IMG/VR virus record: IMGVR_UViG_3300045020_000106
Location: 6,287-70,286 of that record
DNA length: 64,000 nucleotides
Reading direction: 5' to 3' (one strand)
DNA from: a virus
Shown here piece after piece: positions 18,729 through 34,704 of this stretch. The position numbers were made by a program, and so were the translations under genes. Within the stretch, counting starts at the first letter, position 1, and the number at the start of each line of letters is the position of its first letter. Below the pieces are notes generated by a model, which was not told where the DNA came from, searched no databases, and saw nothing but the letters and a program-made list of their open reading frames with translations.

Positions 18729-18976
18729 ACCAACAAGCCGTAGCTTACCCTCCTATCGCTCAGTCGTCCCGTACGCGTGAGTCTTACCGCATCGCCAGGC
18801 GCGTTGTGTTTGACGTAAAAGGGCACAGCATGGATGGAACATGTGAACGCGACCGATGGGTTGAATTGATCGCTAAAGCGATACGCGACGGATGGGATGG
18901 TGTCTGTCCGTACCCATCGCCCAACTTGAAGCTACGCCCGTGGACACCAGCCGAGCTGGCAGATAACGCCGCATGA
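18725..18976 (+). CDS. Hypothetical protein
   Basis: ATGA overlaps on both sides. Confidence 0.5.
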   Translation: MNQQAVAYPPIAQSSRTRESYRIARRVVFDVKGHSMDGTCERDRWVELIAKAIRDGWDGVCPYPSPNLKLRPWTPAELADNAA

Positions 18977-21900
18977 AACTATTCGCTAAGTCTTTTGCTC
19001 TTATTCTCCTGCTTGTAGGTCTATCCTTCGGGCAAACGCCCAACCCCTACGTCAACCTGACAGGAACGCTCCAAGGGCCGAACGGCCAGCCGATTGTGAA
19101 CGGCATCATCAACATGACGCCGACCCAGCAGTTCTTTGTTGGGGGATTAGGATCTTCCACCTGCTCGGGCTACATCTTTCAAGTCACAGGGTTTCCTTTC
19201 AACTGCGGTGATATTGTTGACTTCAACAACGTCACGCCAGGTCCGCCGGCCAATGGGCTGAATATCGCATGGCAGTCTCAAACGATCAATGGCGTTGATC
19301 TGGTGAGCGCGGCGCTGGTAGGGAATGGGAACGCCGCTACCTGTCTCAGTGGAATTGGCACATGGGTCTCCTGCGGTGGTGGCGGCGGCGGCGGAACAGT
19401 CACGCAGATCAATGCAGGAAATGGTCTCACCGGTGGCCCGATCACCGGCGTTGGAACATTAAGTTTATTTCAGTGTCCTACGGCTCAGATTCTTCTGAGC
19501 ACAGGCACGGGATACGTTTGCGCTGCGGCGGGCACGGGCAATGTCAACACGGCGCCAGCGGCCGCCCAACCGATCGTGCAACCGCTCGGCACGGCATTCA
19601 CGGCGAACATCGACAACAACATTCGCTATGTGACATCGAGCTTCAATTGGTCCTACGTCGATTCCGGCGGAAGTTTAGGGAATGCGACCGTCCCCGGAGC
19701 AATTACTTTCACGTTGCCCTGCACGACGAGCAAGCCTTGCCCTCTCGGCATAGATACTGCATCGGCTTCGCATAACTACGTTTACGCGCTGTATATCTCA
19801 GGAACTGGCACCGCCGAGGCTGCGACAGTCACGGGCGGAACCTGCACGCCTGGCGCAACCGCATCGTGTACGCTTCTCGTCACCACTCTGAATGCTCATC
19901 CCAATGGATACACAATTGGCTCAGCCTCGCAGGGTATTCAAGAAGCCTTCAATGATCCGTGGATTTCCGATACTAGCGCCGCCGGGCAGAGCCAGCCTCC
20001 AACCATCAAGCTCTTAGCCAATACCCAATATTTTGTGCGCGCCACCGTCTACACGCGTGGTCGGAATAACACTCTCGACGGATCAGGATCATCCATGATC
20101 TGCTCGACGCGCTCGAAGTGCATCAAGATCGGCTCTTCCACGGCGCAAAATGGCGGCCACATCTTCAACCTGCAAGGGTTGACGACGCTGGCGAATGCCG
20201 GGGTACAGGCGTCAAGTCTGAGCGCCACTTCCGGGACATACACGATTACCACGGTCCAGAATCATTCGTTCGTGGCAGGGGATTTTGTCGATTGCGAGAA
20301 TCACTACACCACCACGGAGTCTCATTGGGTGGCACAGGTGATTTCAACAGGCCTGACAGCGACGCAGTTCGAAGTAACGTTTGGCTCTTCCACGATTGCC
20401 GCGGGCACAGGTTGGGGCTGGTGCAACCTGGAGAATGCCTTCATTGAAGATGGCTCATCGAACGCAGTGGTCGAAGATGTCATCATCGACCAGCTTGGCG
20501 GCCTTGCTACAGGGACGTTCACCTATCCAATTGTGGACGACAACGACCAGACGTTTAACATCAACCGTGTGCGCAGCGGCGGGTCCGGGATTGTAAGTAG
20601 TAGCGCCAACTGGCCGATTGGGGCGATGTTCTACTCCCGCACCGATCAGGGAAATTCCGGCATCATGTTCATCAGCCACTCCGATGCCACAAATAACAAC
20701 TTCTTCACCGGAGCCTCTAACGGAGTCATCATCAAGGATTCCGTCTGCCAGGGAGAGCCTGTCTTTTGCGTGCGTTACTTCGGAGCGCTTCAACCCGCCG
20801 TCATCGACTCGATGTATCAGGACTCAGGCGGGACGAACCCACTTTATAACCAAGTCGTGCAAATGGGATTGCTGACTTCCGGTTCGCGGGGCACGACCAT
20901 TCATGGAAACCTTCCTCTGACTGCCGCGGCTCCTGTCTTTGTTTCTGGCGGATCGACCACGAATCAGCGCAATTACTTCGTGGCACCTCGAAGTTCGGTG
21001 TTTGGCTACTTCATGCCGCTGTTCATCGGCACCGCCCTACCAACTTCCGGCTCAGTCAGTATCCCTCTGACGTGGCCTTCGATTGAGATGCAGGATGGAT
21101 TTAGCCATGACTCCATCGGGACTCTAACGTGGGACATTCTTGTCACCATCGGGCAGGCGTCATTTGGAACGCCGAGCGCACCCTATGGGACTGGAACTTA
21201 CGCCATTGCCACGAATCAAGGCAGTCTGTGCTCGCAGGGCATGTGTACGTTCACCGATACACAGCCTTCCCTGTCGTCTTATACGGTTGGATCATCGGCG
21301 TGGTATCCGCAGTTCTGGTTCTGGCCCGCTGTCGTAGTGAATAACAACACTGAGAACCTTGGCCCGACTTTCATGGATGCGGCCAATCAGGGCGGCGCTT
21401 ACATCTCCGCTTCAGGAACGGCTTCTGGTGGCGGTGGGCCGGCAGTCGTGGCGCAGCAATGCTTTAATACAGGCAGTCCCTCGGCCTACACGAATGCTTT
21501 TGTCTGGTGTCCGACGGGCACGGGATCGAACTCAGCTCTGAATTTCTTTCAGGTAGCCACACAGACGGCGAACTCGAAGGGCTTGGAGAACTACGGAGTC
21601 GCCATCACGGCCCCGAACGATCTACTTACGTTAGAAGACTCGAACCCGGCAAAAACCAAAGCTACGGCTGGCGGGCGGCCTCTCGCTGATGCGAATGACA
21701 TGGCGATTGGCAAAGATCAGTCGGGTGGGATGAGCGAGAGAGCAGCCACTTCGATCAGCGATTACATCGGAACACTGAACAACGGTACCTCGTGGCAGCG
21801 TCGTCTGACGGCCACGGCGGAAAACTATGCAACCAACGTCGCCATCGCCGGACCCCGCCCGTGGATTGACGTTACCGGGCCTGGATACGCAGCGGACCCG

Positions 21901-23733
21901 ACAGGTGCAGCGGATTCTACTACAGCTCTAAATGCCGCGTTCGCAGCCTGCAACGGCGGTACGGTTTTCCTTCCTCCAAACACCGGAAGCGGATTCTACA
22001 AGCACACTGGCCAACTGACGATCAGCAGCGCCGGATGCACCGTTAAATCTTTTCAGCAGGGCGCGATCATCAAGAAAGGCTACAACTCAACCAATGGCGT
22101 ACCCTCCGGATCCGCTGGCAGTGTGCTCATTACCGCCAGCAATGTCACCATCGACGGCATCACTTATGACGGCAACAACGGGAGCTTCACGGGCGGCTGC
22201 TTCTCGTTCGCGGGGAATATCTCGCAGGTAATATTCCAGAACAATTACGTTCACAACTGCGATGGAAACTCTCTTGTCTTCACCGGAACGAGCACGGGTG
22301 CACAAGGGCCGACGAACTTCAAGGTACTGAATAACTACATCGTGGAAGGCGAAAATGGATTTGGTTTAACGTTCTCGCAAAATATCAGCGGCTTCGATGT
22401 GGAAGGAAACCGTTTCGATTGCTCTCCCAGCACAGCGAATCCCAACCCCGGATCGGCCTGCCTGCAACTGGAATCCCAAGGTCTGACAACCTCCATCTCG
22501 CACGGCAAGATCGTCAACAATACGATCATCACCCCGTCGTGCAGCGGGGGAGAATGCTGGGGCACGCAGTTAGGCCAGTTCAATGCCTACGCTTCGACCG
22601 ACATCGTGTTTGGACAAAATCACACCATCATCTCCGGCCCGTCCGCGAATTGCGGATCGTTTCAGGGGCTGGCCAACTCCCGGCTAGACCTTGGCGTGTG
22701 CGAAGAAGCGGGTAACACGGCCAACTATGCCGCGTGGGAGTTCATCATGAACAACGGGATCAACGTCACAGGCGGGGAGCTTGACGATGAGGGACCGGGC
22801 AATGCCATTGGCATTATCATTGAGAGCACGTCGAACAGCAACTTTAGCGGTTTAACGGTCGTTGGTTTCGGGGAAAGCCCGACCGGAGGCGTGACGGCCG
22901 GATTGGAAATTACCTCTGCCGCTTCGGGAGGTTCGCAGGCTATCGCGTCCTGTACGGAGACGGGAAATATCGCCACGTACACGGTTTCATCCCCGCCATT
23001 GAATGCCAATTTCCAGCCGCCCGCAGCGGTGTTTTTGGGTGGATCGTACACACCCGCAGGATTCGGCGGCGGCCCTTACACGATCACCAATACTAATTAC
23101 AACCGCATCTCAGGCACGTTCTCGGTGATTCTGCCTGTAACCGGATTGGGTACGTCTTGTTCGGGAACCTCGCTCATTGTCCAGGCGGTCACCAGCAATA
23201 ATAACTTCTCCAACATCGTGCTCAACTTCCCCACAGGGCAGTATGGGGCGCTGGGGTCGGTTCTGTATGGTATCCAGATTCGTTCGAACGTAACCCAGGC
23301 CATCGTCTCCAATAATCACTTCAGCGACATCAACATCAACGGCACACCGGGAGCCTCGATCAACGAAGATGCCATCAGCATCCAGTCCCCCGGCACGAAT
23401 GTGACGACAGACTCGAACACCTTCGACGGCATCAAGATTAACAATGTCAACATAGGACTCAATCTTGTCGCTGGGACAACCAGTTACTTTCGCAACATCG
23501 AATTCAACGGAGGAGTAACGACGCCTGTTAGCCTGAGCGCTCCAACATTCGCCGAGACGGATTTCCCTGTTCCATTTGCCGATCTCGTAGCTTGCAGCTC
23601 GTCTCTTCAGGACAAGCGAGCGGTTGTGAATAATAGCTCGGTATCGACTTTTGGGGGGACAGCGAACGGCAGCGGATCGACGCAGGTAGCGGTAAGATGC
23701 AACGGCACGAATTGGACGGTAGTGGGAAACTAA
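18973..23733 (+). CDS. Tail spike/fibre-like protein with beta-helix (pectate-lyase-like) domains and an N-terminal Sec signal peptide
   Basis: MKLFAKSFALILLLVGLSFG|Q; VNLTGTLQGPNGQPIVNG resembles the Stf-type fibre N-domain; GTVTQINAGNGLTGG; ADPTGAADSTTALNAAF...GTVFLPP; C-terminal VRCNGTNW. Confidence 0.8.
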   Translation: MKLFAKSFALILLLVGLSFGQTPNPYVNLTGTLQGPNGQPIVNGIINMTPTQQFFVGGLGSSTCSGYIFQVTGFPFNCGDIVDFNNVTPGPPANGLNIAWQSQTINGVDLVSAALVGNGNAATCLSGIGTWVSCGGGGGGGTVTQINAGNGLTGGPITGVGTLSLFQCPTAQILLSTGTGYVCAAAGTGNVNTAPAAAQPIVQPLGTAFTANIDNNIRYVTSSFNWSYVDSGGSLGNATVPGAITFTLPCTTSKPCPLGIDTASASHNYVYALYISGTGTAEAATVTGGTCTPGATASCTLLVTTLNAHPNGYTIGSASQGIQEAFNDPWISDTSAAGQSQPPTIKLLANTQYFVRATVYTRGRNNTLDGSGSSMICSTRSKCIKIGSSTAQNGGHIFNLQGLTTLANAGVQASSLSATSGTYTITTVQNHSFVAGDFVDCENHYTTTESHWVAQVISTGLTATQFEVTFGSSTIAAGTGWGWCNLENAFIEDGSSNAVVEDVIIDQLGGLATGTFTYPIVDDNDQTFNINRVRSGGSGIVSSSANWPIGAMFYSRTDQGNSGIMFISHSDATNNNFFTGASNGVIIKDSVCQGEPVFCVRYFGALQPAVIDSMYQDSGGTNPLYNQVVQMGLLTSGSRGTTIHGNLPLTAAAPVFVSGGSTTNQRNYFVAPRSSVFGYFMPLFIGTALPTSGSVSIPLTWPSIEMQDGFSHDSIGTLTWDILVTIGQASFGTPSAPYGTGTYAIATNQGSLCSQGMCTFTDTQPSLSSYTVGSSAWYPQFWFWPAVVVNNNTENLGPTFMDAANQGGAYISASGTASGGGGPAVVAQQCFNTGSPSAYTNAFVWCPTGTGSNSALNFFQVATQTANSKGLENYGVAITAPNDLLTLEDSNPAKTKATAGGRPLADANDMAIGKDQSGGMSERAATSISDYIGTLNNGTSWQRRLTATAENYATNVAIAGPRPWIDVTGPGYAADPTGAADSTTALNAAFAACNGGTVFLPPNTGSGFYKHTGQLTISSAGCTVKSFQQGAIIKKGYNSTNGVPSGSAGSVLITASNVTIDGITYDGNNGSFTGGCFSFAGNISQVIFQNNYVHNCDGNSLVFTGTSTGAQGPTNFKVLNNYIVEGENGFGLTFSQNISGFDVEGNRFDCSPSTANPNPGSACLQLESQGLTTSISHGKIVNNTIITPSCSGGECWGTQLGQFNAYASTDIVFGQNHTIISGPSANCGSFQGLANSRLDLGVCEEAGNTANYAAWEFIMNNGINVTGGELDDEGPGNAIGIIIESTSNSNFSGLTVVGFGESPTGGVTAGLEITSAASGGSQAIASCTETGNIATYTVSSPPLNANFQPPAAVFLGGSYTPAGFGGGPYTITNTNYNRISGTFSVILPVTGLGTSCSGTSLIVQAVTSNNNFSNIVLNFPTGQYGALGSVLYGIQIRSNVTQAIVSNNHFSDININGTPGASINEDAISIQSPGTNVTTDSNTFDGIKINNVNIGLNLVAGTTSYFRNIEFNGGVTTPVSLSAPTFAETDFPVPFADLVACSSSLQDKRAVVNNSSVSTFGGTANGSGSTQVAVRCNGTNWTVVGN

Positions 23734-25154
23734 TGCGCATTCTCGTTCGTCTTCTCATCGTCGCGGCTCTCGTTGGTATGGCTCATGCCCAGCTTGTCGT
23801 AGCGCCCATGACAGCGACGTGCGCAACCAGTGTCGACGGGTCAGTCGTGGGCCTACCGAATCCCTTGCGCGGGCCGACGCTCTCGGAAGTTTACAGCGGA
23901 GGAACGCTACCTGCTGGTAACTACTTTGTGCAAGTGGCATGGTATGACTCCGCCAATCATGTGACCTTGGTCAGTCCAGAAGTCCAAGGGCAGATGACTG
24001 CGACTGGGACTTTGAATGTTACTCGACCCTCCGGCATGCCTTCCGCGGCGAGTGGGATGCAGGTATTTATTGGAACTTCATCGGGCGCTGAGACGCTGCA
24101 GGGCACGACCAGCGGAAGCGCAGTCTACAGTCAGGTGGCACCACTCAATAGCGGCACCGCCGTGCCAGCTCTGAATACGACGATTTGCAAGATTATCGCC
24201 AATGATTCTGGATGGCCGACGGGAACCGGATATGACACGACGCTAGTCGCCACCAATGGGCAGACTTATCCGGGCTATCCAGTGCGCGCGCAATTCCTTG
24301 GGCCGGGGAACAATATAAACCTCGGTCAAGGATTCCCGCGGTACAACGGAGTGGTGAATTACCCTGTCCCGATTCTGGCCCAGCCTTACGGGCACGGTCC
24401 GCAATCGATTTCCGGCCCACTGAGTCTTGGGTCGGGAGGATCAAACTACAACCTCACCAGCGTCGGAAGAATTGGAATTCTCACCGCAACCCCGGCGTGG
24501 GGCGTGGATGCGGAAGGTGCGGGATTAAGTGGAGCGATCAATGCCAATGTTGGTTATCTGTTCAACGGTTCCGCGCCGCTCAATCACTTACTCGTTGGCA
24601 ATGGTAGTTATTATGTGGATTCGGCAACCATTCCTGGGTCGGCGCTCAACCTGTTCTATCAGACTGTTGCTCTAAATGGGACCGCGCAAACCCAAAGACC
24701 TACGCTGAATTTCAGTTCCTACTTCACTGCAACAGATTCCGCGAGTCCAGCCGAGACGACGATCGCGCCAGTCACCACGGGATCTGAAACGAAACTGGTG
24801 ACGGCCGCATCCGCAGGGACGAGCGGCGACTGTGCGCAATGGGACTCAAGTGGTGGACTCGGAGCGGCTTCAGCACCCTGCCAAACGGGCGTAACCCATG
24901 GCGGGAGTGCGACAGGATGTTTGTCGAGCGGCAGCCCCTGCAGCACGACCATTACATGGAACGGCGGTGGTTTTACCAGCAGCACATATTCTGCGGTGTG
25001 CTGGGGATCGGGACTAAACTCGGGCGGCTCCCAGGCGGCCTTTGTATATGAAACGTCACAGACCGCTACGCAAATTGTAGTCACAACTTCCAACGTCGGC
25101 ACAACAAACCCCGGCGGCTTCGCAACGATTATCTGCATTGGAACTTCGAATTAA
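23733..25154 (+). CDS. Tail fibre-like protein with a signal peptide and an FN3-like module
   Basis: MRILVRLLIVAALVGMAHA|Q; GGTLPAGNYFVQV; GTSGDCAQWDSSG; C-terminal fibre-tip-like domain. Confidence 0.7.
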   Translation: MRILVRLLIVAALVGMAHAQLVVAPMTATCATSVDGSVVGLPNPLRGPTLSEVYSGGTLPAGNYFVQVAWYDSANHVTLVSPEVQGQMTATGTLNVTRPSGMPSAASGMQVFIGTSSGAETLQGTTSGSAVYSQVAPLNSGTAVPALNTTICKIIANDSGWPTGTGYDTTLVATNGQTYPGYPVRAQFLGPGNNINLGQGFPRYNGVVNYPVPILAQPYGHGPQSISGPLSLGSGGSNYNLTSVGRIGILTATPAWGVDAEGAGLSGAINANVGYLFNGSAPLNHLLVGNGSYYVDSATIPGSALNLFYQTVALNGTAQTQRPTLNFSSYFTATDSASPAETTIAPVTTGSETKLVTAASAGTSGDCAQWDSSGGLGAASAPCQTGVTHGGSATGCLSSGSPCSTTITWNGGGFTSSTYSAVCWGSGLNSGGSQAAFVYETSQTATQIVVTTSNVGTTNPGGFATIICIGTSN

Positions 25155-25167
25155 GGGAGGGCTGACG

Positions 25168-25572
25168 ATGCCTCATAAATATGGAGATGTCGTTACACTC
25201 GTACAAGCATCTGCCGATGGGACAGTCTCACGGACAAACGCGCTCGTGCTGGTCGCAAGTGTCCAGCCGGCAGACCTCAACCCACATCCACGCAATGAAC
25301 AAGGCGTGTCATTGAACATAGTCTTACTGAAAGACGGCCAGGGCAAGCCTCTGGCTGGCGGAGAGTATCTCGATGTCCTGTATCTAACTCCATTACCGGG
25401 ACGCGGGGTGCACGCCACGGCCATCGATCAACTCGTACGGCGCGCGCAGTTGGTGCCGGAGTGGAAAGAAGGCGCGCGGATCGGATGGGAAATTGCGCCG
25501 ACACGCGAACACATCCAGGCATTGCGTCTCGAAGTAAAGAACCTGAAAGCTAAAGCCGACAAGGCGAAATAA
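25168..25572 (+). CDS. Hypothetical protein
   Basis: GGAGG RBS. Confidence 0.6.
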   Translation: MPHKYGDVVTLVQASADGTVSRTNALVLVASVQPADLNPHPRNEQGVSLNIVLLKDGQGKPLAGGEYLDVLYLTPLPGRGVHATAIDQLVRRAQLVPEWKEGARIGWEIAPTREHIQALRLEVKNLKAKADKAK

Positions 25573-25589
25573 AGATCGGAGCATCGCCC

Positions 25590-26660
25590 GTGGCATCCAT
25601 GATTCGCCCGTCCCATCATGTCCCCAGACTCGCAATCGCTTACAAGAATTTCGCGGCGAACAAAGGCCTCAGCCATATTGGCTTGGGTGTTTCTGCGATG
25701 CAGAACGCGAAAGCTTTGCGCGCCGCCGAATACATCGCGGAAGTGTGGCCGATCATCGGCTTTGAAGATCTCGCCAGTAAACTCCAGCAGGACCGCGCTA
25801 CAGCGATCAACGCTCATCACAACCCGGTCACCCATGTTGTCATCTCGGCGCCATGGATTCCTACGCAAAGCATCGCGCAGTTGGTCCATAGTTATCCCGA
25901 CATTGAATTCGCCGTCGTATCTCACTCGAATATCGGATTCCTACAAGCAGATCCTCGAGCGATTGATCTATTGCGCAGTGGCGCGGAACTCGCGCATGCT
26001 TGCCCCAACTTTCACATCGGAGGAAACTCGGACAAGTTCTGCACATGGTGGCGGGCGGCCTATGGCAGTGAAATCCTGCTACTTCCGAATATGTACCCCT
26101 TCGCATCCATCCGCCACAAACCTCTTTGGAGTGGAGGATTGCTGCGCATCGGATGCTTCTGCGCGATTCGCGCCTACAAGAATGTACTCACGGCGGCGGC
26201 CGCTGCGCTCGAGACCGGAGTACGATTGCGCGCTTCCGAACTGGAGTTTTACATCTCCGGAGGACGCTCAGAAGGCGGGGCGGGCATTCGGCAGGCAATT
26301 ACGGAGATGTACAAAGGGCTGCTGCGCTCCAGGGTTATCGACAATAACTGGCAATCGTGGCCGCAGTTTGTCACCACAGTCGGGGAAATGGATTTGTTGC
26401 TGCAGCCGTCCTACACGGAAGGATTCAATATGGTTACCGCGGACGGCATCTCGAAAGGCGTGCCATCCGTCGTTGGGGAAGCGATTGGATGGGTGCCGTC
26501 GAATTGGGTGGCGTCGACCGACGCAGCGTGCGACATCGCGAACCGCGCCATTGCCCTATTGCACGATCCGGGCGCGATCAATGAAGGCGTAACCGCCTTG
26601 ATTCGGCATAACACGAACGCTCTTTCCGAGTGGAAGAGTTTTTTAACGCTGTACCCGTAG
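25590..26660 (+). CDS. Glycosyltransferase (GT-B, GT4-like)
   Basis: IRAYKNV and DLLLQPSYTEGFNMVTADGISKGVPSV (EX7E-type motif, second acidic residue is D). Confidence 0.85.
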   Translation: MASMIRPSHHVPRLAIAYKNFAANKGLSHIGLGVSAMQNAKALRAAEYIAEVWPIIGFEDLASKLQQDRATAINAHHNPVTHVVISAPWIPTQSIAQLVHSYPDIEFAVVSHSNIGFLQADPRAIDLLRSGAELAHACPNFHIGGNSDKFCTWWRAAYGSEILLLPNMYPFASIRHKPLWSGGLLRIGCFCAIRAYKNVLTAAAAALETGVRLRASELEFYISGGRSEGGAGIRQAITEMYKGLLRSRVIDNNWQSWPQFVTTVGEMDLLLQPSYTEGFNMVTADGISKGVPSVVGEAIGWVPSNWVASTDAACDIANRAIALLHDPGAINEGVTALIRHNTNALSEWKSFLTLYP

Positions 26661-26672
26661 CGGAGGAATTCT

Positions 26673-27602
26673 GTGATTGACCAGGTGTTGAATGATCGCC
26701 TAACCGCACTATCCGGGAAACTGGATCGCGTTCTGACGCGCGAAGCGACCCTATACCAAAAAGACAATGACGTTCTTGCGCGCATCGCGCGCATCGAACA
26801 GGCTTTACAACTCGCGCATCCAGCGGCATTCCCGCGCAAGCTTGGACGAAAGACGAAGCGCGTCGATGAGCGCACGCTTAAGCTTTCCAAGTACCTGTCA
26901 ACCACTTTACCGCCAGTACCTGTCGCCTGCGATTGGACATCCGGCATTACCAGTTGGGGGATGATGGAGAACGATACCCTGGGCGATTGCACGATCGCAG
27001 CCGCCGGCCATCTCGTGATGGCGTGGACTGCAGCCGTAAGTTCAGGGGAAACGGTGCGGCAATTACCCGATTCCGTGATTCAGGATTATTACTCTGCCTG
27101 GTGTGGTTACGTGCCCGGGGATTCTTCGACCGACAATGGCGGTGTGGAGATTGACATCCTGAATAACTGGCGCAAGTACGGTTTCGGATTACGCGCGAAC
27201 CGGCAAGGGCAGGACCGGTTGGCAGCTTATGTCAGCGTCAACCCGGGGAATCTGGACGAAGTCAAGCAAGCTATCGCCCTGTTTGGGGGGCTCTATATCG
27301 GCCTTCAATTGCCAACTACGGCGCAGGGTCAACTGGTGTGGGATGTGGTAGGAGACGGCAGCGGGGATTCCGCGCCCGGCAGTTGGGGCGGCCATGCGGT
27401 CCCGATCACCAAGTATTCACAGACACGGTTGACGTGTGTGACGTGGGGCGCATTGCTGGATATGACCAACGAGTTCTGGGCGAAGTACGTGGACGAGTGC
27501 TACGCCCTGCTCTCTTTTGACTTCCTGAACAAGAACGAAATCAGTCCAGGCGGAATTGATTTTGATACGCTTCGCAACGATCTGCAGCAAGTCACCGCTT
27601 AA
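26673..27602 (+). CDS. Papain-like (C1A-related) cysteine peptidase with an N-terminal coiled coil
   Basis: DWT...NDTLGDCTIAA (Cys), WGGHAV (His), VTWG. Confidence 0.75.
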   Translation: MIDQVLNDRLTALSGKLDRVLTREATLYQKDNDVLARIARIEQALQLAHPAAFPRKLGRKTKRVDERTLKLSKYLSTTLPPVPVACDWTSGITSWGMMENDTLGDCTIAAAGHLVMAWTAAVSSGETVRQLPDSVIQDYYSAWCGYVPGDSSTDNGGVEIDILNNWRKYGFGLRANRQGQDRLAAYVSVNPGNLDEVKQAIALFGGLYIGLQLPTTAQGQLVWDVVGDGSGDSAPGSWGGHAVPITKYSQTRLTCVTWGALLDMTNEFWAKYVDECYALLSFDFLNKNEISPGGIDFDTLRNDLQQVTA

Positions 27603-27634: not shown

Positions 27635-29335
27635 ATGAACCGTATCGTAAAAGCGGCCTTGGCCGCAATCGCGCTTCTCTGCTCTCTGGCTTTCGCGCAG
27701 GGGCCATCGTCTTATCCACCGACGTGGGTCTATGCCCGCGCCTACAACGGCTGGAATCTTGTGGGTCAAACGGCCAGCACCTATACGTTCAATGGTGGTG
27801 TCTGTAACTACTCACCATACAACAACGGCAATACGCCTTCGTTCTTCGACTTCTCCGGCTTCCAGGGATCGACGCAGGTCTACAACCCGGTTCTGATCAC
27901 CGATACCAACCCTGCGCTGAGTGAAATTGTCACGCCGACCTCGACCACGCAAACTTCTGCCTCGTGCGGTTTTGCGGCGACGACAGTGAACTCGCACACC
28001 AGTTTCACCTTGAGTTCCGGCACCATTGGACTGCAGGAAGCCATTACCAATCAGTTGCAGTCGACGCCAGCCTTCGTGGTAGTTCTCGACAAATACTGGT
28101 ATCAACTCGTGGCGGCCCTCCCCGGCTATCCCAACACGGTCAATGCTCAAACAATCATCGCGGCAGCGACCGGCACAGCCAACGTCTATATCGTGGACAC
28201 GACAACCGCGCCGTGGACGTTTTACTCATGGAACGGCTCGAAGTATGTTGCAGACTCTTCCACCGGTGGAATTCCCTTCACCAGTTTGACGGTGCTGGCG
28301 GCTCCGGTGGCTCCCACGACCGTCGCGGCCACTTGCGCAACCAACGGCGGCGGTTGTATCACCACAGCGACCACGGGCGGGACCATCCCAGCCTCGGGTG
28401 CTTATACCGTCGGCCAAACCTACGTCACAGCCCTGGGCGGTGAGACGGTGATGTCGACCGACACAGCTTCAGGCGCTACGGTGACCGTTGGTTCGACGGC
28501 GACAAATACCATCACCGTAACCTCTCCGGCAGCGGAAACGGGTGCTGTAGGATGGCGTTTGTATCTGACGGCGGCTTCAGGAGCGACTGGCACGGAAATC
28601 CTCTACGCTTCGTCCTGTGTTGCTCCGTCGTCCACGTCGTCTGGTTATTCCAGCGGCCAGATCGTACTGAACGGTGTCTGTGCCATCGGAGCCAACGCCA
28701 CGATTACGGCTATCGTGACGGGCACGGCTGCGGCTCCGGTGTTGCCATCTGTTGGTGGAACCTATTCAGCCCCCAACACGGCGTTCCCTGTGGCGTCAGG
28801 ATCAACTTCTCCGCTGCAGAACATCGTGAGCTATCCTCCGTTCACCAACGTAGCAACCATTGCTGCGGCTGCGACCGGAAACCTGGGATATGTCAACTTC
28901 CCCACCGGATTCCTGAATAGCCTAGGGCGGCATATTAAAGTCCACGGCACGGGATTTGGGACGACCAACGCTACCACCGGGACTCTGACTCTTGCGACGC
29001 TGTTGTATAGCGTTCCGGGAGTAACTTCCATCACACCGTTCACCGCAGTCAGCGGAACGACCTCGGCGTCGGCCGTCGTAAACTTCACCTTTGACATCGA
29101 CTACACCACGACAGTTGTGGGAACGTCGGGCAAACTCGAAGCGCACGGAACCGTATGTTACAACCTGGCTGGCACCGCTGTTTGCACGCCAGCACAGGAT
29201 TTGATCACTGCTGCTTCTTCCGCGATCGATCTCACCAAGCAGGATCAGCTTGCGATCACACTGAAGCCAACGACGACCGCCATCACCACCGGCGGCGCGC
29301 AGTTGCGTCAATTGACCGTGCAGGTGCTGCAGTAG
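27635..29335 (+). CDS. Thr/Ser-rich virion appendage/decoration-like protein with a signal peptide
   Basis: AAGGAG RBS; MNRIVKAALAAIALLCSLAFA|Q; FN3-like TGGTIPASGAYTV..TYVTALGGET...GAVGWRLY. Confidence 0.7.
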   Translation: MNRIVKAALAAIALLCSLAFAQGPSSYPPTWVYARAYNGWNLVGQTASTYTFNGGVCNYSPYNNGNTPSFFDFSGFQGSTQVYNPVLITDTNPALSEIVTPTSTTQTSASCGFAATTVNSHTSFTLSSGTIGLQEAITNQLQSTPAFVVVLDKYWYQLVAALPGYPNTVNAQTIIAAATGTANVYIVDTTTAPWTFYSWNGSKYVADSSTGGIPFTSLTVLAAPVAPTTVAATCATNGGGCITTATTGGTIPASGAYTVGQTYVTALGGETVMSTDTASGATVTVGSTATNTITVTSPAAETGAVGWRLYLTAASGATGTEILYASSCVAPSSTSSGYSSGQIVLNGVCAIGANATITAIVTGTAAAPVLPSVGGTYSAPNTAFPVASGSTSPLQNIVSYPPFTNVATIAAAATGNLGYVNFPTGFLNSLGRHIKVHGTGFGTTNATTGTLTLATLLYSVPGVTSITPFTAVSGTTSASAVVNFTFDIDYTTTVVGTSGKLEAHGTVCYNLAGTAVCTPAQDLITAASSAIDLTKQDQLAITLKPTTTAITTGGAQLRQLTVQVLQ

Positions 29336-29363
29336 CGTGCTTTCTCCTTTGAGGGTTGCAACC

Positions 29364-30827
29364 ATGAAGCGCTTATTGCTTTCACTCTTTTGTCTCTGCC
29401 TGCCCGCTCTGGCCCAGCGGGCAGGTCCATTTTCTCTCAACGCGGTTGGAACTTCGGGAGTCTCGTCATGTGCGACGATCTCCGTAAACTTCCAATCCAA
29501 TTCCACGGTTTACATTGATGTCAGCGGGACATTTTCCGCCACACTTCAGCCGGCGATCGTGCGGGCCGCGCCCGGTACCGCGCGTAACGTGCAAGTCACG
29601 CCAGTCAACTCAACCACCCAACAGTCGACCATTACCACGGGTGGCGGGTATTGGGCGACGGTCACAGGCGCGGATACCTTTCAAGCCTGTGTCAGTTCTT
29701 ATGCCAGCGGGACCGCCGTTGTTTACCTGACAGTTTCAAATGGCAGTGCGCGCTCGCCGGGAACAGGTGGTAGTGGTGGCGGGGTGACCAGCGTGGCGCA
29801 GACTGTGCCCTCATGGCTCACGGTGACAGGCTCGCCGGTAACTACGAGTGGGACGCTGGCAATTGCTCCTACGACGGCGCAAACATCGCATCAGGTTATT
29901 GGGACATGCGGCACAGCGACTACCTTCGCTCCTTGCGCGCTTGTGGCGGGAGATATGCCAACCGCCATTCCCATCGCTAACATAGGCAGCGCTGGGCTGA
30001 GCGGCTCCACGGGCATCTCAATTGCCTCGACGGGAGCCATCAGCCAAGCGCTGACCTTCGATAGCACTAGTACGGGCCTGACGACCCCAGCAGGCAACGC
30101 TTCATGGACCTTCCCCACCACTAACTCTTTAACCATTGGACAGGGGACGCCGGTAGCTTCGACGCCGAATGTAACCATCAGCGGAGCGCCGTTTACCACC
30201 GGCAATGCCACGACCAACTTTCCAATGTTTTATCTGAACTGCAGTGGTTCCTCTGGCCCAACCACTTTAGGGACTTCGGGAACGATTTTTGGTATCAATA
30301 CCTGTTCGGGATTTGCCGGGAACTTTATCGATTACCACATCAACGGCGGGCCAACAAAATTTCTCGTGGGCAACAGCGGCAACATCAACATGGCCGCCAG
30401 AATCACCAACTACAACGGCTTGGTTGGCGTAGGGGAGAGTTTTTGCTTAATCGTGGGATCGACTTCGCAGAAGGCGGAAACCGGCGCGGATACATCTTTG
30501 CTGACGATTACTCCACCCGCCACAGCCGGAGGCTATAAGGCTCACATCGTAATGTCGGTTTCAGCCGCCAGCGCGGCGGTTCTGGGATGGACGGCGACTT
30601 ATACCGATTCCAACGGCAACGCGCAGACGCCAACCAATCTCGCATTGCTGCAAAATGGCACCGCAGTTCCAGCATTGACCTTCACGGTTGCCTCGGGAAC
30701 GTCGAATCTGTATGGCGACTTTTATTTCGACATCAACAACGCCGCAGCGGCAATCACTATCAAGACTACGTTTACGGGAACATCGGTGGCCTATAAGGCT
30801 TCAGCGACGATCTGTGAGCAGCAGTAA
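29364..30827 (+). CDS. Tail fibre-like protein with a signal peptide
   Basis: MKRLLLSLFCLCLPALA|Q; GGGVTSVAQTVPSWLTVTGSPVTTSGTLAI fibre repeat; ALVAGDMP. Confidence 0.72.
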   Translation: MKRLLLSLFCLCLPALAQRAGPFSLNAVGTSGVSSCATISVNFQSNSTVYIDVSGTFSATLQPAIVRAAPGTARNVQVTPVNSTTQQSTITTGGGYWATVTGADTFQACVSSYASGTAVVYLTVSNGSARSPGTGGSGGGVTSVAQTVPSWLTVTGSPVTTSGTLAIAPTTAQTSHQVIGTCGTATTFAPCALVAGDMPTAIPIANIGSAGLSGSTGISIASTGAISQALTFDSTSTGLTTPAGNASWTFPTTNSLTIGQGTPVASTPNVTISGAPFTTGNATTNFPMFYLNCSGSSGPTTLGTSGTIFGINTCSGFAGNFIDYHINGGPTKFLVGNSGNINMAARITNYNGLVGVGESFCLIVGSTSQKAETGADTSLLTITPPATAGGYKAHIVMSVSAASAAVLGWTATYTDSNGNAQTPTNLALLQNGTAVPALTFTVASGTSNLYGDFYFDINNAAAAITIKTTFTGTSVAYKASATICEQQ

Positions 30828-30850
30828 ATTTCGAAACGGAGGGCAATAGC

Positions 30851-31039
30851 ATGAATCCAACATTCAAAGCATGGGCCATCGCGGCCATGAACGCACTTCT
30901 CAGTGGCGCATTTGCCGCCATGGGTTCGCTAGCTGCGGGGCTTACGGTAAAGCAGGCAGTGATCGTAGTCGGGTTTGCCGCGGTGGGCTCGTTCGGAAAA
31001 TGGTACGCGCAGCACCCTATTCCCGGCGGCGAGCAGTAA
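30851..31039 (+). CDS. Holin-like 2-TM protein
   Basis: 62 aa, two hydrophobic helices, GGAGG RBS, lies before the lysis-like genes. Confidence 0.55.
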   Translation: MNPTFKAWAIAAMNALLSGAFAAMGSLAAGLTVKQAVIVVGFAAVGSFGKWYAQHPIPGGEQ

Positions 31040-31085
31040 GCGTATTATTGTAGCGCCACTTTGTACTCTAGAGAGGCGAGGCACT

Positions 31086-31364: not shown

Positions 31365-31416
31365 AGCCTTGCGCGAATACCGTTCGCATCTGGAAAAGTT
31401 TATTCCTCCGCGCGGC

Positions 31417-32066: not shown

Positions 32067-32070
32067 CAAT

Positions 32071-32395
32071 GTGTTCCTTGCTGAGGATGGCTTCCCATTT
32101 GAAAAAGTTCCTGGGTACGCGATTCTTGTCGCTGCTACCTGCTGGGGCGTGGCGCAAGTGGTCAAAGTACTCAGGAACGGGAAGTCAGACCCGGATCCCA
32201 AGCGCCCTTCAGCGGGTGAACTCGATCCGGCCGAATGGGAAAAAAGAATTGCCGACATCTTCGACCGGCGATTATCGCGGCGCAATCTGGAAATTGCAGA
32301 AGTCTTTCGTGCTCTGATTAACGAAGAGCATAGCAGTCATGTGGATGAAATCCGCAGGGCTGTGCGCGAAGTTCTGAAAGAAAAAAAATCTGTGA
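32071..32395 (+). CDS. Single-TM protein (holin-like), read fused to the next gene through an A8 run
   Basis: TM helix; with A7 at 32381 it would end EKNL* in a GTGA overlap. Confidence 0.45.
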
Positions 32396-32811
32396 TCTCA
32401 CGTCAGTCTATTCGTTGTCCGCATTGCAAATTGATGCAGTTCAAGCGCAAGAGCGAGATTTGCGTGCGCTGTAAGCAGAGTTACGCGCCGCGGATCGAAC
32501 CTGTTGCTCCTGTGGTTGCGATTGATCGAGTGACTCGCTTTACGCCTCACCAGTTGCATTCGTTTGAGTTCTGGATTGGCGTGGTGATGTGCTGGTTGCG
32601 TGTTCGCCGTGGACTCGGGGCGCTGGACTTAACGGAGCGAGCGGGGCTCAGTAGGCAATATGTCTGCAAGGTGGAAATGGGTAGGGCCGTCCCGAGCATC
32701 ACGCCACACAGGGGAAAGATGAAGTGGAGCTTTGATCGTTACTGCGAAGCCCTAAACACCACGCCTCTGCATGTACTTCGCATGACCGAATTTCTGGTGA
32801 CCGGGCAATGA
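32392..32811 (+). CDS. Zn-ribbon plus XRE HTH transcription regulator (Acidobacteria-type)
   Basis: IRCPHCKLMQF...CVRC; LRVRRGL...LTERAGLSRQYVCKVEMG..VPS. Confidence 0.75.
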   Translation: MISRQSIRCPHCKLMQFKRKSEICVRCKQSYAPRIEPVAPVVAIDRVTRFTPHQLHSFEFWIGVVMCWLRVRRGLGALDLTERAGLSRQYVCKVEMGRAVPSITPHRGKMKWSFDRYCEALNTTPLHVLRMTEFLVTGQ

Positions 32812-33182
32812 GCTGGAAGTACTCGCAGTCCTCTGGAGCGATCTCGAAGGACGGCATCACGGTAGGCTCCGGTTACTCCGGCTATCAGGAGGGACTGGAT
32901 AACCCGCAAATGGAGCAGACGGTTGGGATAGGGCCAATTCCGCAAGGCTTGTGGACGATCTCCGGGCCGCCCTTCGACAACCCCGAGCATGGGTCCTATT
33001 GTTTGCGGCTCTCTCCGCAGGCAGGAACTTTCACCTTTGGCCGCGATGGATTTCTGATTCACGGGGATGAAGTAGAGCATGCGGGCGAGCACTTAGCTTC
33101 CCGTGGCTGCATTGTGACGGATCGCGTAACCCGCACGCGGATTTATCAAAGCGGAGACACTACTTTGGAGGTAACACCATGA
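32808..33182 (+). CDS. Tlde1/DUF2778-like L,D-transpeptidase-fold enzyme (endolysin candidate)
   Basis: GYSG...N......GPIPQG...RDGFLIHGD...ASRGCIV (YkuD-type His...Cys motif). Confidence 0.85.
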   Translation: MSWKYSQSSGAISKDGITVGSGYSGYQEGLDNPQMEQTVGIGPIPQGLWTISGPPFDNPEHGSYCLRLSPQAGTFTFGRDGFLIHGDEVEHAGEHLASRGCIVTDRVTRTRIYQSGDTTLEVTP

Positions 33183-33694
33183 AGACTCTCTTGTTGGCCG
33201 TTTGCATCGTCCTGATGACCGCAGTTTGCTTTTGCCAGACAACACCCACTACGCCGCCGAGCGCATTTCAGGACACCACGATCAGCTTCAATTTGACGCC
33301 CATCACTCTTCCGCGGACAGGCACGACTTTGGCCGGCGCTGAGACGGATGCCTTGATTGCCTTCACGCCCAATAACGCCATCGGCGAGACGACTTTGATC
33401 AGCGCGGAGCCGTTCATCGGCGCCCGCTATGAGCGAACCTTTCCATCAATCGCGAAGTGGCTGCAAAATCACACCTCGCTGACTGGCGGTAACTTCGAAG
33501 CGGGAATTACGATCAGCGGCGGAGTAGTCAAGGCCAACAAGGAGTATTGGGGGGAGCGCGCCGGAATCTTCCTCAAGTACGCTCCCAATGGGGCGACCAA
33601 CTTCAATATCGGCGTCGATGCGGAATGGAACAACCTTCCGGGCATCGCGCACAATATCCCGAGCATTGCTGTCGGCCCGAATTTCCGTTTCTAG
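33179..33694 (+). CDS. Outer-membrane beta-barrel-like protein with a signal peptide
   Basis: MKTLLLAVCIVLMTAVCFC|Q; alternating beta strands; C-terminal GPNFRF. Confidence 0.6.
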   Translation: MKTLLLAVCIVLMTAVCFCQTTPTTPPSAFQDTTISFNLTPITLPRTGTTLAGAETDALIAFTPNNAIGETTLISAEPFIGARYERTFPSIAKWLQNHTSLTGGNFEAGITISGGVVKANKEYWGERAGIFLKYAPNGATNFNIGVDAEWNNLPGIAHNIPSIAVGPNFRF

Positions 33695-33697
33695 TTT

Positions 33698-33892
33698 ATG
33701 GCTTGCGCGACTCTTCAACCCCGCTGCTTGGTCTGTGGGCACTACGGCCACAGACCGGGCAAACGTTGTCCCTTGAACAACCTCGTCGACACCCGCAAGG
33801 TCGTATCGGCGAAAGAATTATTTCCGCACAATCCCGATCTGGCGGCCATGCTAGATCGGATGAGAAAGTCATGGACGCCACAGTTCGCATAG
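33698..33892 (+). CDS. Small Zn-knuckle protein
   Basis: CLVCGHYGH....CP. Confidence 0.45.
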   Translation: MACATLQPRCLVCGHYGHRPGKRCPLNNLVDTRKVVSAKELFPHNPDLAAMLDRMRKSWTPQFA

Positions 33893-34180
33893 AAAACCGT
33901 CGAAGCCCGAGAGACTTCGACGGTGGTTGTTTGTGGTTACGCAGCGATGCGAGATGCTTCCACGGGAGCGACAATATGCGCAAGGCATTGGCTATGGACG
34001 TAGCCCTTGCCTTTCGGGTTGTCTTGATGGAAGCGCGCACTGTAGCCAATCGTCTTCTGGCAAAAGCGACAGTGCGACACAGCGATGGCGTGCCGTTGGC
34101 GGCAGGCATCGTGCTCGCAGTTGTTCAGGCAGAGGATAAATTCGCTGCCCGTTTCTGACGTGACGTTCAGAGTTGCCAAC

Positions 34181-34423
34181 ATGCGCGAGATGCTACCAGT
34201 GGCGCACATGGGAAATCTGTTCAATTTTGCTCACCATTCAATTGCTATTGAAACCGCACGCTGTAAGACGAAAGCTTGTGTATGGCCTCCGGTCGAAGGA
34301 ATGGGATTATGCGCTCACTGCCTGAAGGATTTGACGTTGGAAGTTTCTCCCATCCCCGCGATTGACCTGCTGGAAATCATTCCCAGAGCGGGGAAGATCG
34401 ATCGAGGGTACGTACGAGCGTAG
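34181..34423 (+). CDS. Small Zn-finger protein
   Basis: CKTKAC..P.....LCAHC; start uncertain. Confidence 0.4.
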   Translation: MREMLPVAHMGNLFNFAHHSIAIETARCKTKACVWPPVEGMGLCAHCLKDLTLEVSPIPAIDLLEIIPRAGKIDRGYVRA

Positions 34424-34425
34424 AT

Positions 34426-34704
34426 ATGCTGCTATCTGGCCTAAGCCGAAGGGCATTCTTCTCGAAACTGCTAATCGGTATTCCGGTTCTGGCGATGGGC
34501 CAGAAGGCCGTCATGAGCGGGAATCGAGCGGTGATTTGTGACAGTGAATCGGTGCTCTGTCCCAATGGTCATAAAACCTGCCGCATCATCGACGCGCCCT
34601 TGGTGGTGGGAAATGACAATCGAGAATATCCGGATCAGGCGCAACTGTTTGGCTTTCATGTGCTGAGATGCAGTGAGTGCCACGTCTTGTTTACCCGTGA
34701 GTAG
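34426..34704 (+). CDS. Tat-signal small Zn-ribbon protein
   Basis: SRRAFFSK twin-arginine motif, hydrophobic core, AMG|Q; CPNGH...CSEC. Confidence 0.6.
   Translation: MLLSGLSRRAFFSKLLIGIPVLAMGQKAVMSGNRAVICDSESVLCPNGHKTCRIIDAPLVVGNDNREYPDQAQLFGFHVLRCSECHVLFTRE

Follow-up and report, generated by a model that had tools for sequence, protein, structure and literature searches.

The late region of an uncultured short-tailed phage opens with a cassette encoding four consecutive large proteins that look like receptor-binding proteins and carry Sec-type leaders. The best reading of this cassette, to which we give an even chance, is that the proteins are Sec-exported fibers or spikes that join the phage particles at lysis. 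These large proteins of host-recognition type probably mature outside the cytoplasm, and that they are parts of the virion is plausible from their likeness to proteins of two cultured phages of the same design. The general view is that all parts of tailed phages are made in the cytoplasm. We propose, with a little less than even confidence, that tailed phages of at least two Gln-start phyla, the Acidobacteriota and the Bacteroidota, assemble in two compartments: head and tail would be cytoplasmic, and the Sec-exported fibers or spikes would mature in the periplasm (trimmed, capped with pyroglutamate and disulfide-bonded) and dock only at the holin break.

The window, that is, the whole stretch of 64,000 nucleotides that was analyzed (positions 6,287 to 70,286 of IMG/VR record IMGVR_UViG_3300045020_000106), covers the greater part of the genome of an uncultured short-tailed phage that infects soil Acidobacteria (Acidobacteriaceae). 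It encodes an SU10-type head-to-tail adaptor of short-tailed phages at 44083..44838 (PF24175, E 4.5e-9, 37.5 bits against a cut-off of 27; this and the other genes given as start..end lie on the plus strand). The 854-aa product of 35368..37932 gave no family match and is presumed to be the portal from its position and conservation only; its homologs adjoin the cassette in 33 viral and 37 bacterial loci, which links the cassette with the head genes. The cassette itself spans 12 kb, about 17% of the genome, and is co-oriented with, and directly upstream of, the lysis and head genes. No other fiber-like genes were recognized in the genome. Among the related loci from genomes, 61 of 66 lie in Acidobacteriaceae/Terracidiphilus MAGs. 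The 18 proteins of the genome arms gave no Pfam match to an integrase or other lifestyle marker. In a tblastn search of 50,697 deposited phage records, the presumed portal and the 566-, 487- and 1586-aa proteins of the cassette found no match, and the lineage therefore has no deposited relative there. The genome also encodes a large nozzle of 1168 aa, and the 276-aa Ser/Thr/Gly-rich protein that follows it (49064-49894) is a candidate for a needle or fiber of the conventional kind.

Six ORFs of the window share one leader design, consisting of a basic n-region, a hydrophobic stretch, small residues at positions -3 and -1, and then Gln. They encode the four consecutive large proteins, of 1586, 473, 566 and 487 aa, and two small ones, and the predicted cuts (marked here by a slash) are SFG/Q for 18973, AHA/Q for 23733, AFA/Q for 27635, ALA/Q for 29364, CFC/Q for 33179 and AMG/Q for 34426. 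By eye and by rule, the first five fit what is expected for Sec and signal peptidase I, namely a core of 7-15 residues and small uncharged residues at -3/-1. Gln thus stands at +1 in all six leaders of the window and also in a seventh, AFG/Q, on a 269-aa protein encoded on the minus strand just beyond the window. The leaders were called by eye and with home-made crude rules rather than by a trained predictor; the crude rule scored 17 of 91 ORFs as having a leader with another residue at +1 and made a probably false Gln call for three small ORFs, and a loose leader rule picked eight of the 91 greedy ORFs of the genome, all four large proteins included. Judged from sequence, the leader-plus-Gln pattern exceeds chance. 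The mature parts of the large proteins are rich in Ser, Thr and Gly and contain 34 (1586 aa), 8, 8 and 8 Cys residues, all even numbers. The preliminary description had noted Sec-type leaders followed by Gln on the four large proteins, the same Gln pattern on the two small ones, and Cys/Ser/Thr-rich mature parts; each of these was seen again, the large-protein leaders both by eye and by rule.

The 566-aa protein (27635..29335) is composed of a leader (residues 1-21), an N-terminal module (N-module, about residues 30-205), a middle part and a C-terminal jelly roll (residues 397-566). In the AF2 model of this protein (mean pLDDT 81.5), the jelly roll is of the TNF-like/lectin type, with Z scores of 9.4 to Pgp3 and 8.7 to the PLTL lectin, and also resembles phage heads (cyanophage A4 tail, Z 7.5; PRD1 P5, 7.2; lactococcal phage 1358 RBP, 6.8). 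Matches in BFVD included phage tail spikes and depolymerases (E 1e-9 to 1e-6), and the Atlas gave no usable feature match. The N-module did not match known fiber anchors, with Foldseek E values above 0.5 and a best Z score of 6.2 where the bar of the tool is 8; the top scores, all below that bar, were to the K1 lyase spike (6.2), the GP4 tail (5.7) and the JBD30 baseplate (5.6). An Stf-like N-terminal domain, as earlier suggested, was not borne out, since hhalign against lambda Stf aligned 34 columns with E 0.012 and a probability of 3.5%. A complex prediction with three N-module copies and the adaptor (44083-44838), run without controls, returned a score of 0.00 (mark 0.32) and gave no answer. 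The 566-aa family retains 42-82% identity over its whole length, unlike a typical fast-changing receptor binder, and contains the invariant or near-invariant Cys pairs C57/C111 and C328/C349. In related phages, one N-module is combined with swapped C-termini in two to six leader-bearing paralogs per phage, which reach 1879 aa. Taken with the TNF-like/lectin head and relatives that contain BppL_N, the shared N-module, swapped C-termini and paralogs make the cassette proteins look like receptor-binding proteins.

Leaders are conserved together with these modules. For the 566-aa protein, leader and Gln are kept in 111 of the 120 relatives listed (231 relatives in all). The N-module profile matches 863 clusters; in the best 150 of these, the module starts at or before residue 59 in 149, and leader plus Gln is present in 140. 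Across 68 viral loci we examined 111 N-module segments, 96 of which have leader plus Gln by rule and three more by eye; two are cut and ten do not have leader plus Gln. The leader sequences vary among hundreds of relatives while the leader feature is kept. A sister group (10 loci) encodes a 507-aa homolog without a leader between TerL and portal, and the fold can therefore function without export. In four relatives, 90-190 residues precede the hydrophobic segment, which would therefore be a membrane anchor there and not a leader. In the bacterial loci, head or packaging genes stand alongside the N-module family in 39 of 65, which are therefore prophages, and most of the remaining loci share a contig with a head-gene locus. 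No free-standing cellular copy of the family was found among the 65; it was found only beside phage genes. As far as sequences can tell, conserved leaders on modular proteins of receptor-binding type look genuine and lineage-wide, and export is therefore the natural reading.

The other three large proteins, like the 566-aa protein, have no family in Pfam (even at E 10), PHROGs or NCBIfam, and PDB sequence searches with the profiles A1 and A2 (A2 being the N-module) and with the 1586-aa protein gave nothing significant. The spike-like 1586-aa protein (18973..23733; leader MKLF...SFG/Q; 34 Cys in the mature part) belongs to a mosaic family with 29 relatives at 24-100% coverage; 25 of them have a leader, which in 12 is followed by Gln. 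Among 26 relatives, BppL_N was found in five and PF12708 in one, neither of which occurs in the window protein itself. Its residues 290-370 resemble the N-module of the 27635 protein (E 0.02), and its feature neighbors in the Atlas are P22-type tailspikes (0.76-0.83), which we take as a lead only. The 473-aa protein (23733..25154; leader MRIL...AHA/Q; 8 Cys) is encoded by a gene whose start overlaps the stop of the preceding gene by one base. Homologs were found in 33 of the 68 viral loci, two of them cut by the edge; all 31 assessable relatives have a leader, before Gln in 26 and before another residue in five. The 487-aa protein (29364..30827; leader MKRL...ALA/Q; 8 Cys in the mature part) has homologous pieces in six viral loci. 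The fiber repeats that had been noted found no counterpart, as tblastn of a 76-aa piece of this protein (residues 125-200) matched none of the 50,697 phage records. Beta-helix domains, likewise proposed, gave no Pfam match even at E 10, leaving language-model leads and, by eye, a cap-like motif.

The two small exported candidates lie further downstream. The 171-aa protein (33179..33694), with a leader ending CFC/Q and a C-terminus ending NFRF, is by eye a possible small outer-membrane barrel; the beta-barrel of the preliminary description comes down to the leader and the C-terminal Phe, both seen by eye. The 92-aa Cys/His-rich protein (34426..34704) had no homolog in the fetched loci. By eye, its leader appears to be of twin-arginine type, with SRRAFFSK at residues 7-14 and a cut at AMG/Q. 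The Tat motif is S/T-R-R-x-F-L-K ahead of a hydrophobic core.

Three genes within the cassette encode proteins without leaders. An ORF for a 144-aa protein lies at 25138..25572, and in some relatives its homolog is fused in frame, via a hydrophobic segment, to a protein of the 27635 type. It is followed by a GT4-type glycosyltransferase gene (25590..26660), for which the earlier assignment was upheld by PF20706 (GT4-conflict, E 3.2e-7, 30.1 bits against a cut-off of 26); PF13692, at 20.5 bits, remained under its cut-off. A homolog lies within the same cassette in the relative locus L003. The next gene (26673..27602) encodes a possible papain-fold cysteine peptidase of 309 aa, with homologs in the relative loci L002 and L003. 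It matches phrog_19005 (E 6.5e-40), a family of unknown function, and is 34% identical to a protein of MW202816.1 that its depositor labeled 'cysteine protease' and that adjoins an amidase. The papain-like protease of the preliminary description is suggested by this labeled homolog and by GDC and GGHAV motifs seen by eye, and was not matched in Pfam, NCBIfam or by PDB sequence search. No link was found for the further idea that the two enzymes modify the fibers. Neither has a leader; both would work in the cytoplasm, while the substrates that Sec transports are unfolded chains. Downstream of the large proteins are a 62-aa holin candidate with two hydrophobic stretches seen by eye (30851..31039) and an endolysin candidate, a 124-aa cell-wall enzyme with a Tlde1 domain (32808..33182; PF10908, E 1.2e-8, 35.9 bits against a cut-off of 30.1; phrog_24118).

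Gln at +1, described for exported proteins of Bacteroidetes, is no pointer to that phylum here: the host belongs to the Acidobacteriaceae and has the same Gln habit. Of 24 leaders of host TonB receptors, about 20 end before Gln by eye, and in 400 kb of random host chromosome the rule picked 31 sites, 13 of them with Gln (expected, 12.9%). A plant-type glutaminyl cyclase (PF05096, E 1e-92 to 1e-94) is encoded in all three Acidobacteriaceae genomes with related prophages; it was also present in 3 of 14 control genomes and hence is not specific. A literature search for glutaminyl cyclase in Acidobacteria gave no paper. The Q-rule of Bacteroidetes, in which the leader is cut before Gln and a host glutaminyl cyclase is present, as here, is called exclusive to that group in the accessible parts of the papers describing it (PMC5837995, PMC10653852; also PMC10367356), and the 2018 Q-rule survey, in its accessible part, does not include Acidobacteria. 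The host habit works like the Q-rule but falls outside its published Bacteroidota range, and its occurrence in Acidobacteriaceae is a by-product of this analysis.

If the proteins are exported fibers or spikes, the following order of events can be proposed. The four large modular proteins, of receptor-binding, sugar-binding or depolymerase type, would pass the inner membrane as unfolded chains, and signal peptidase I would cut each Sec-type leader before Gln. Host glutaminyl cyclase would then probably cyclize the new N-terminal Gln, and oxidation of the many paired Cys residues would lead to folding and oligomerization in the periplasm. By analogy with the two cultured phages, particles of capsid and tail, assembled in the cytoplasm, would encounter these proteins only at lysis, once the holin and wall enzyme from the genes directly downstream have opened the envelope; the shared N-module could then dock the proteins on the tail.

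It is rather unlikely, in our estimate, that the proteins are instead free or envelope-bound lectins and depolymerases which an infected or lysogenic cell exports and which never enter the virion, with the large nozzle or a small tail-module protein as the true receptor binder. In such roles they could loosen the thick exopolysaccharide for the escape of progeny, hide receptors or destroy them (superinfection exclusion), or reshape the cell surface. Export is what the leaders and the host-type Gln indicate, and many of the relatives are prophages, where conversion genes are common; the needle or fiber candidate at 49064-49894 and the 1168-aa nozzle exist, and the N-module did not significantly resemble any known virion anchor. 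Exported tailspike-fold proteins also occur in bacteria: according to the accessible part of its description, WceF of Pantoea stewartii is a trimeric beta-helix protein that acts on exopolysaccharide and trims stewartan (PMC7949094). It differs from the proteins described here in that its gene is cellular and lies in an EPS cluster, its export is by Tat and not by Sec, and it does not belong to a phage. Phages of P. gingivalis copy the Q-rule habit of their host, and their Q-rule proteins, of unknown function (one example has 144 aa), are thought to alter the host surface, as stated in the available parts of the paper and its supplement (PMC10367356). Against an accessory role, however, the N-module family was found only beside phage genes, with head genes in 39 of 65 bacterial loci and most of the others on a contig with such a locus, and two to six late-operon proteins per phage, of up to 1.9 kaa, would cost a great deal for accessory functions. 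A conserved N-module joined to many different C-termini is what one sees in exchangeable parts attached to virions, some relatives of the 1586-aa protein carry BppL_N, and leader proteins of phage phi18:3 are annotated from virion MS/MS.

It is improbable that the hydrophobic N-termini are membrane anchors or assembly tethers, or are cut by a phage protease, and that the fibers join by a cytoplasmic route. In favor of this reading, the hydrophobic segment behind a 90-190-residue domain in four relatives would be an internal anchor, the cassettes of this phage and of L002 and L003 contain a leaderless protease-like gene, and for apparent signal peptides of P. gingivalis phage capsid proteins, cleavage by a prohead protease has been suggested in the accessible part of that work (PMC10367356). 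However, small residues at -3/-1 and Gln, matching host signal peptidase I sites, are kept in hundreds of relatives, which nothing would require of a simple anchor. An N-in topology would still leave the bulk of the protein in the periplasm, and the even Cys counts and conserved Cys pairs suit an oxidizing compartment.

That the leaders are an annotation artifact, being untranslated or chance sequence ahead of true starts further downstream, is hardly credible: starts were set by ORF logic only and a Shine-Dalgarno sequence is not obvious for three of the six leader ORFs, but AAGGAG lies 8-14 nt 5' of the 27635 ATG, the conserved N-module begins about nine residues past the predicted cut, the 1586-aa protein has no further Met before residue 48, which lies within conserved sequence, and a stop-free, in-frame hydrophobic segment of varying sequence is kept in the 111 of 120 listed relatives and in 140 of the best 150 clusters.

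Of the earlier proposal that exported appendages are joined to the virion, export thus holds as the natural reading of genuine-looking signals, and the virion part is plausible by analogy and from the phi18:3 MS/MS annotation. If the fibers or spikes do mature in the periplasm, tailed-phage assembly is not always purely cytoplasmic, and a route absent from textbook phage biology exists. Infectivity would then hinge on host functions for Sec export, signal peptide cleavage, disulfide formation and glutaminyl cyclization, which would be new points for host resistance and phage engineering, and the soil-exposed outer gear would be as hardy as the surface proteins of the host. Annotation pipelines in which a signal peptide counts against virion membership would give wrong labels to receptor-binding proteins in two large phyla of soil, gut and marine bacteria. 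The family is large, with 863 clusters for the N-module alone, and cultured systems for testing are available in Tunturi 1/2 on Tunturiibacter and phi18:3 on Cellulophaga.

The fibers and spikes of podophages such as T7 (gp17) and P22 (gp9) have a conserved N-terminal attachment part and exchangeable C-terminal receptor-binding or depolymerase parts; they are leaderless and join the particle in the cytoplasm, and some phages have several paralogs. The N-module described here showed no significant fold or sequence match to fibers of this type. To our knowledge, no tailed phage is known to assemble its fibers by an export route, and a literature search, which left most subscription journals outside its range, found no description of Sec-exported fibers of tailed phages. 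In the accessible part of the P. gingivalis phage supplement (PMC10367356), one 'tail fiber assembly' row is marked no_SP.

The two cultured phages of the same design were not found to have sequence similarity to the phage described here. Tunturiibacter phage Tunturi 1 (PP887698) is a cultured podovirus of Acidobacteriota with leaders on gp12, 13, 14, 16 and 17, which stand in fiber position and are rich in Cys (20, 10, 21, 2 and 32 residues); four of the five leaders precede Gln. The depositors labeled gp14 'tail spike' and gp17 'virion structural protein', and the accessible text of the accompanying paper (PMC11924767) does not contain the terms signal peptide, tail fiber/fibre, tailspike or mass spectrometry. 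The leader genes of Tunturi 1 come after the head and tail protein genes, whereas the cassette here is upstream of the portal. In Cellulophaga phage phi18:3 (NC_021794), three consecutive large proteins (gp085-087; 547, 785 and 559 aa) have leaders followed by Gln as here, with predicted cuts YS/Q, SA/Q and NA/Q, and no paper remarking on these leaders was found in the literature. The record describes gp085-087 as structural/tail proteins 'based on experimental MS/MS proteomics analysis', and none of the nine other MS-annotated virion proteins has a leader plus Gln. MS/MS of a virion preparation can include co-purified secreted protein. Phage phi18:3 differs in its Bacteroidota host and in that gp085-087 are nearly Cys-free (0, 1 and 3 residues), but its gene order, gp085-087, endolysin, GroES, TerL and portal, is like the order found here.

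The window spans bases 6287-70286 of a 70,286-bp IMG/VR virus record with a completeness rating of 97%, and nearly all of its genes lie on the plus strand. Four large proteins of 1586 aa (18973-23733), 473 aa (23733-25154), 566 aa (27635-29335) and 487 aa (29364-30827) form a cassette with the genes between them. As the preliminary description had proposed, these four, together with a 171-aa protein (33179-33694) and a 92-aa protein (34426-34704), start with leaders, each having a basic n-region, a hydrophobic core, small residues at -3 and -1, and Gln next. The predicted cut sites are SFG↓Q, AHA↓Q, AFA↓Q, ALA↓Q, CFC↓Q and AMG↓Q, and the last protein carries, by eye, the twin-arginine-type motif SRRAFFSK. 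Past the leader, the four large proteins contain 34, 8, 8 and 8 Cys and are rich in Ser and Thr, as described, and also in Gly. A seventh protein with a leader before Gln (269 aa, AFG↓Q; L190), for which no family was found, is encoded on the minus strand at genome bases 2078-2887, among early-looking minus-strand genes just left of the window and away from the cassette.

The leaders were followed through the relatives of these proteins. Among 8000 scored candidates, 231 are relatives of the 566-aa protein at E ≤0.001; in 111 of the 120 listed, a leader with a -3/-1 site precedes Gln, and the other nine are five fragments and four proteins with a long extension before the hydrophobic segment. 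Its conserved N-module (residues about 30-205) forms 111 segments in 68 related viral loci, with leader and Gln in 96 by rule and 3 by eye, 2 segments cut at the locus edge and 10 leaderless. Searched with a profile built from the module alone (A2, 61 sequences), 1.84 billion representatives yielded 863 clusters at E ≤0.001 (301 at ≤1e-30). Among the best 150 of the 863, the module begins no later than residue 59 in 149 and a leader with Gln is found by rule in 140, most of the ten exceptions appearing start-truncated or missed by the rule. For the 473-aa protein, relatives in 33 loci include 26 with leader and Gln, 5 whose leader precedes some other residue and 2 that are cut; the 1586-aa family is a mosaic (24-100% coverage), with a leader in 25 of 29 members, before Gln in 12. 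Since the leaders are kept although their sequences drift, they are real features.

Gln at +1 had been tied to Bacteroidetes, an attribution that the hosts contradict: 61 of 66 genome loci lie in Acidobacteriaceae or Terracidiphilus MAGs. Of the other five, two share a contig labelled Verrucomicrobia, and the remaining three bear the labels Opitutaceae, Ca. Angelobacter and Terriglobales, respectively. Head or packaging homologues in 39 of the 65 loci with any match identify these as prophages, and several of the remaining 26 share a contig with a locus carrying head genes. In the TonB-receptor genes of three host genomes, 24 leaders are visible, and by eye about 20 of them end before Gln. In twenty 20-kb stretches at round-number positions of one host genome, a rule blind to Gln versus other polar residues picked 31 sites; Gln followed at 13 of them, where composition predicts 12.9%, and when clear leaders are judged by eye the proportion with Gln comes closer to two thirds. 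A plant-type glutaminyl cyclase is present in all three host genomes, the family being unspecific and matching 3 of 14 control genomes too. As the host genomes themselves favour Gln at +1, the phage copies a host habit. The leader signals are real, go far back in this lineage and suit its acidobacterial host, and export of the proteins that bear them is very likely. Passages in PMC5837995 and PMC10653852 state that the Q-rule is exclusive to Bacteroidetes, and the 2018 survey, in its available text, covers Bacteroidetes, Chlorobi, Spirochaetes, Chlamydiae and Cyanobacteria, with Acidobacteria absent; the habit is therefore wider than published.

An AlphaFold2 model of the 566-aa protein with 58 relatives (mean pLDDT 81.5) comprises a leader helix (2-20), the well-defined N-module, a weaker middle and a C-terminal beta-sandwich (397-566). 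The modelled sandwich has the jelly-roll fold of TNF-like and lectin domains (Pgp3 C-domain, Z 9.4; IBDV VP2, 9.2; TNF-like lectin, 8.7), with phage heads lower among the matches (cyanophage A4 tail complex, 7.5; PRD1 P5, 7.2; lactococcal 1358 RBP, 6.8). Foldseek returned lectins and lyases in PDB (E about 1e-4) and viral proteins in BFVD (E 1e-9 to 1e-6), the phi15 tail spike and KP34 depolymerase among them. Modelled alone (pLDDT 90.7), the N-module contains a small barrel. Its highest-scoring fold matches, without exception phage tail proteins (K1 lyase spike, Z 6.2; GP4 tail, 5.7; JBD30 baseplate, 5.6; Chi tail tip, 5.5), are weak, falling short of the threshold of 8 that the tool sets, and Foldseek E is above 0.5; no tool linked the module to a known virion anchor. 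In the module (27698-28279), certain Asp, Cys, His, Ser, Thr, Gly and Gln residues never vary, and it has a SGTxGLQEAIN motif, echoed by SQGIQEAFN within the 1586-aa protein; it may provide a site for catalysis or a metal, or else cap the structure.

Related phages encode two to six leader-bearing proteins of up to 1879 aa, several of which share the N-module on differing C-termini, and the module was seen beside phage genes only. BppL_N, the N-terminal domain of a lactococcal phage baseplate receptor-binding protein, occurs in 5 of 26 relatives of the 1586-aa protein, and a pectate-lyase-type domain in 1 of 26. This is the architecture of exchangeable receptor-binding or depolymerase proteins. 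The 'Stf-like' domain, fibre repeats and beta-helix domains reported earlier were recovered by no tool. In four relatives (P0037, P0043, P0052, P0060), the N-module protein is preceded by a 90-190-residue domain joined to it in frame via the hydrophobic segment, which would give a membrane-spanning form; in all but P0043 this domain resembles the window's 144-aa protein (25138-25572).

Within the cassette, the GT4-like enzyme was confirmed in a GTG frame (25590-26660; PF20706, 30.1 bits, cut-off 26). The 'papain-like protease' (26673-27602) fared less clearly: it has GDC and GGHAV motifs by eye, and its best deposited homologue (34% identity; MW202816), whose gene adjoins an amidase, is labelled 'cysteine protease' by its depositors, but Pfam, NCBIfam and PDB sequences gave no match; it matches phrog_19005, of unknown function. 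In-cassette homologues of both occur in one related locus (L003) and of the protease-like protein in another (L002). Both lack leaders, and we saw no evidence for their proposed action on the exported proteins. A cytoplasmic GT4 would more plausibly act on lipid-linked or nucleotide-sugar pathways, and the protease-like protein, given the amidase neighbour in MW202816, may be a wall enzyme.

HNH, DNA methylase and AAA_24 genes occupy the left part of the window. A 205-aa protein (13550-14167) matches the Acb2/Tad1 hairpin domain at the Pfam cut-off (27 bits) and may counter host defence by sponging up signalling nucleotides. GroES-like (15338-15736; PF00166, E 2e-16) and GroEL-like (15880-17574) genes form a phage-encoded chaperonin pair (15338-17574); if its first ATG is the start, the GroES-like ORF has an additional, very hydrophobic N-terminal stretch. 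Downstream of the cassette follow a 62-aa holin candidate with two hydrophobic segments (by eye), a Tlde1-domain wall enzyme (PF10908, above cut-off), the 171-aa protein, which ends in Phe, the 92-aa Tat-type protein and an 854-aa portal (35368-37932), presumed from position and conservation only. An HNH endonuclease gene (41317-41976; phrog_3377, E 1.5e-24) lies within the head-gene block, and a SU10-type head-to-tail adaptor (44083-44838), a nozzle-sized 1168-aa protein and the large terminase (60310-61911) are also encoded. A 2161-aa protein (53100-59585) matches phrog_21 (labelled portal-associated, E 5e-65) and phrog_1238 (labelled phosphoheptose isomerase) and, weakly and below the cut-off, the RelA/SpoT-like family PF04607 in one stretch. 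This giant probably belongs to the virion, either inside it or ejected from it, and includes enzyme domains. By tblastn, the presumed portal and three cassette proteins had no match in 50,697 deposited phage records, which contain no relative of this uncultured lineage.

Architecture, genome economy and two cultured analogues give about an even chance that the exported proteins are phage fibres or spikes joined to particles at lysis. That they are exported yet stay outside the virion is a less probable but serious alternative. Several observations count against virion parts: conservation of the 566-aa family extends over its full length; four relatives place a cytoplasmic-looking domain, like that of 25138-25572, before the hydrophobic segment; a 276-aa Ser/Thr/Gly-rich protein after the nozzle is a candidate conventional needle or fibre; and exported tailspike-fold enzymes outside virions exist, as the available text on WceF (PMC7949094) records. 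A leaderless homologue in a sister group, encoded between TerL and portal, likewise counts against it; this 502-507-aa protein (L008-L015, L017, L019) corresponds to residues about 85-566 of the 566-aa protein and has a different N-terminus. An uncleaved anchor, or another route, is unlikely alongside the -3/-1 sites before Gln, and a start-site artefact is scarcely credible for leaders kept through sequence drift.

The reading as fibres or spikes can be compared with known systems. Within limited literature coverage, no paper found describes Sec-exported fibres of tailed phages; the nearest published parallel is the Q-rule proteins of P. gingivalis phages, of unknown function (PMC10367356), the single example in the portion of its supplement available being 144 aa. 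Tunturi 1, a podovirus isolated on Tunturiibacter (Acidobacteriota), has leaders on gp12 (1190 aa), gp13, gp14, gp16 and gp17, four of the five before Gln, with 20, 10, 21, 2 and 32 Cys, respectively; no other structural protein examined has one. The gp12-17 genes directly follow head and 'tail protein' genes, and gp14 and gp17 are labelled 'tail spike protein' and 'virion structural protein'; in the available text of the Tunturi paper (PMC11924767), 'signal peptide', 'tail fiber/fibre', 'tailspike' and 'mass spectrometry' never occur. In Cellulophaga phi18:3, gp085-087 all have a leader and Gln, as do none of nine other MS-annotated virion proteins examined. Their annotation is 'based on experimental MS/MS proteomics analysis', which, for a virion preparation, is compatible with co-purified secreted protein and silent on leader removal. 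The order gp085-087, endolysin, GroES, TerL, portal is like that of the window, and GroES copies are encoded near the leader-bearing proteins of phi18:3. Neither phage has sequence similarity to the window phage, so the leader design recurs independently, which by analogy raises the odds that proteins of this kind are parts of the virion.
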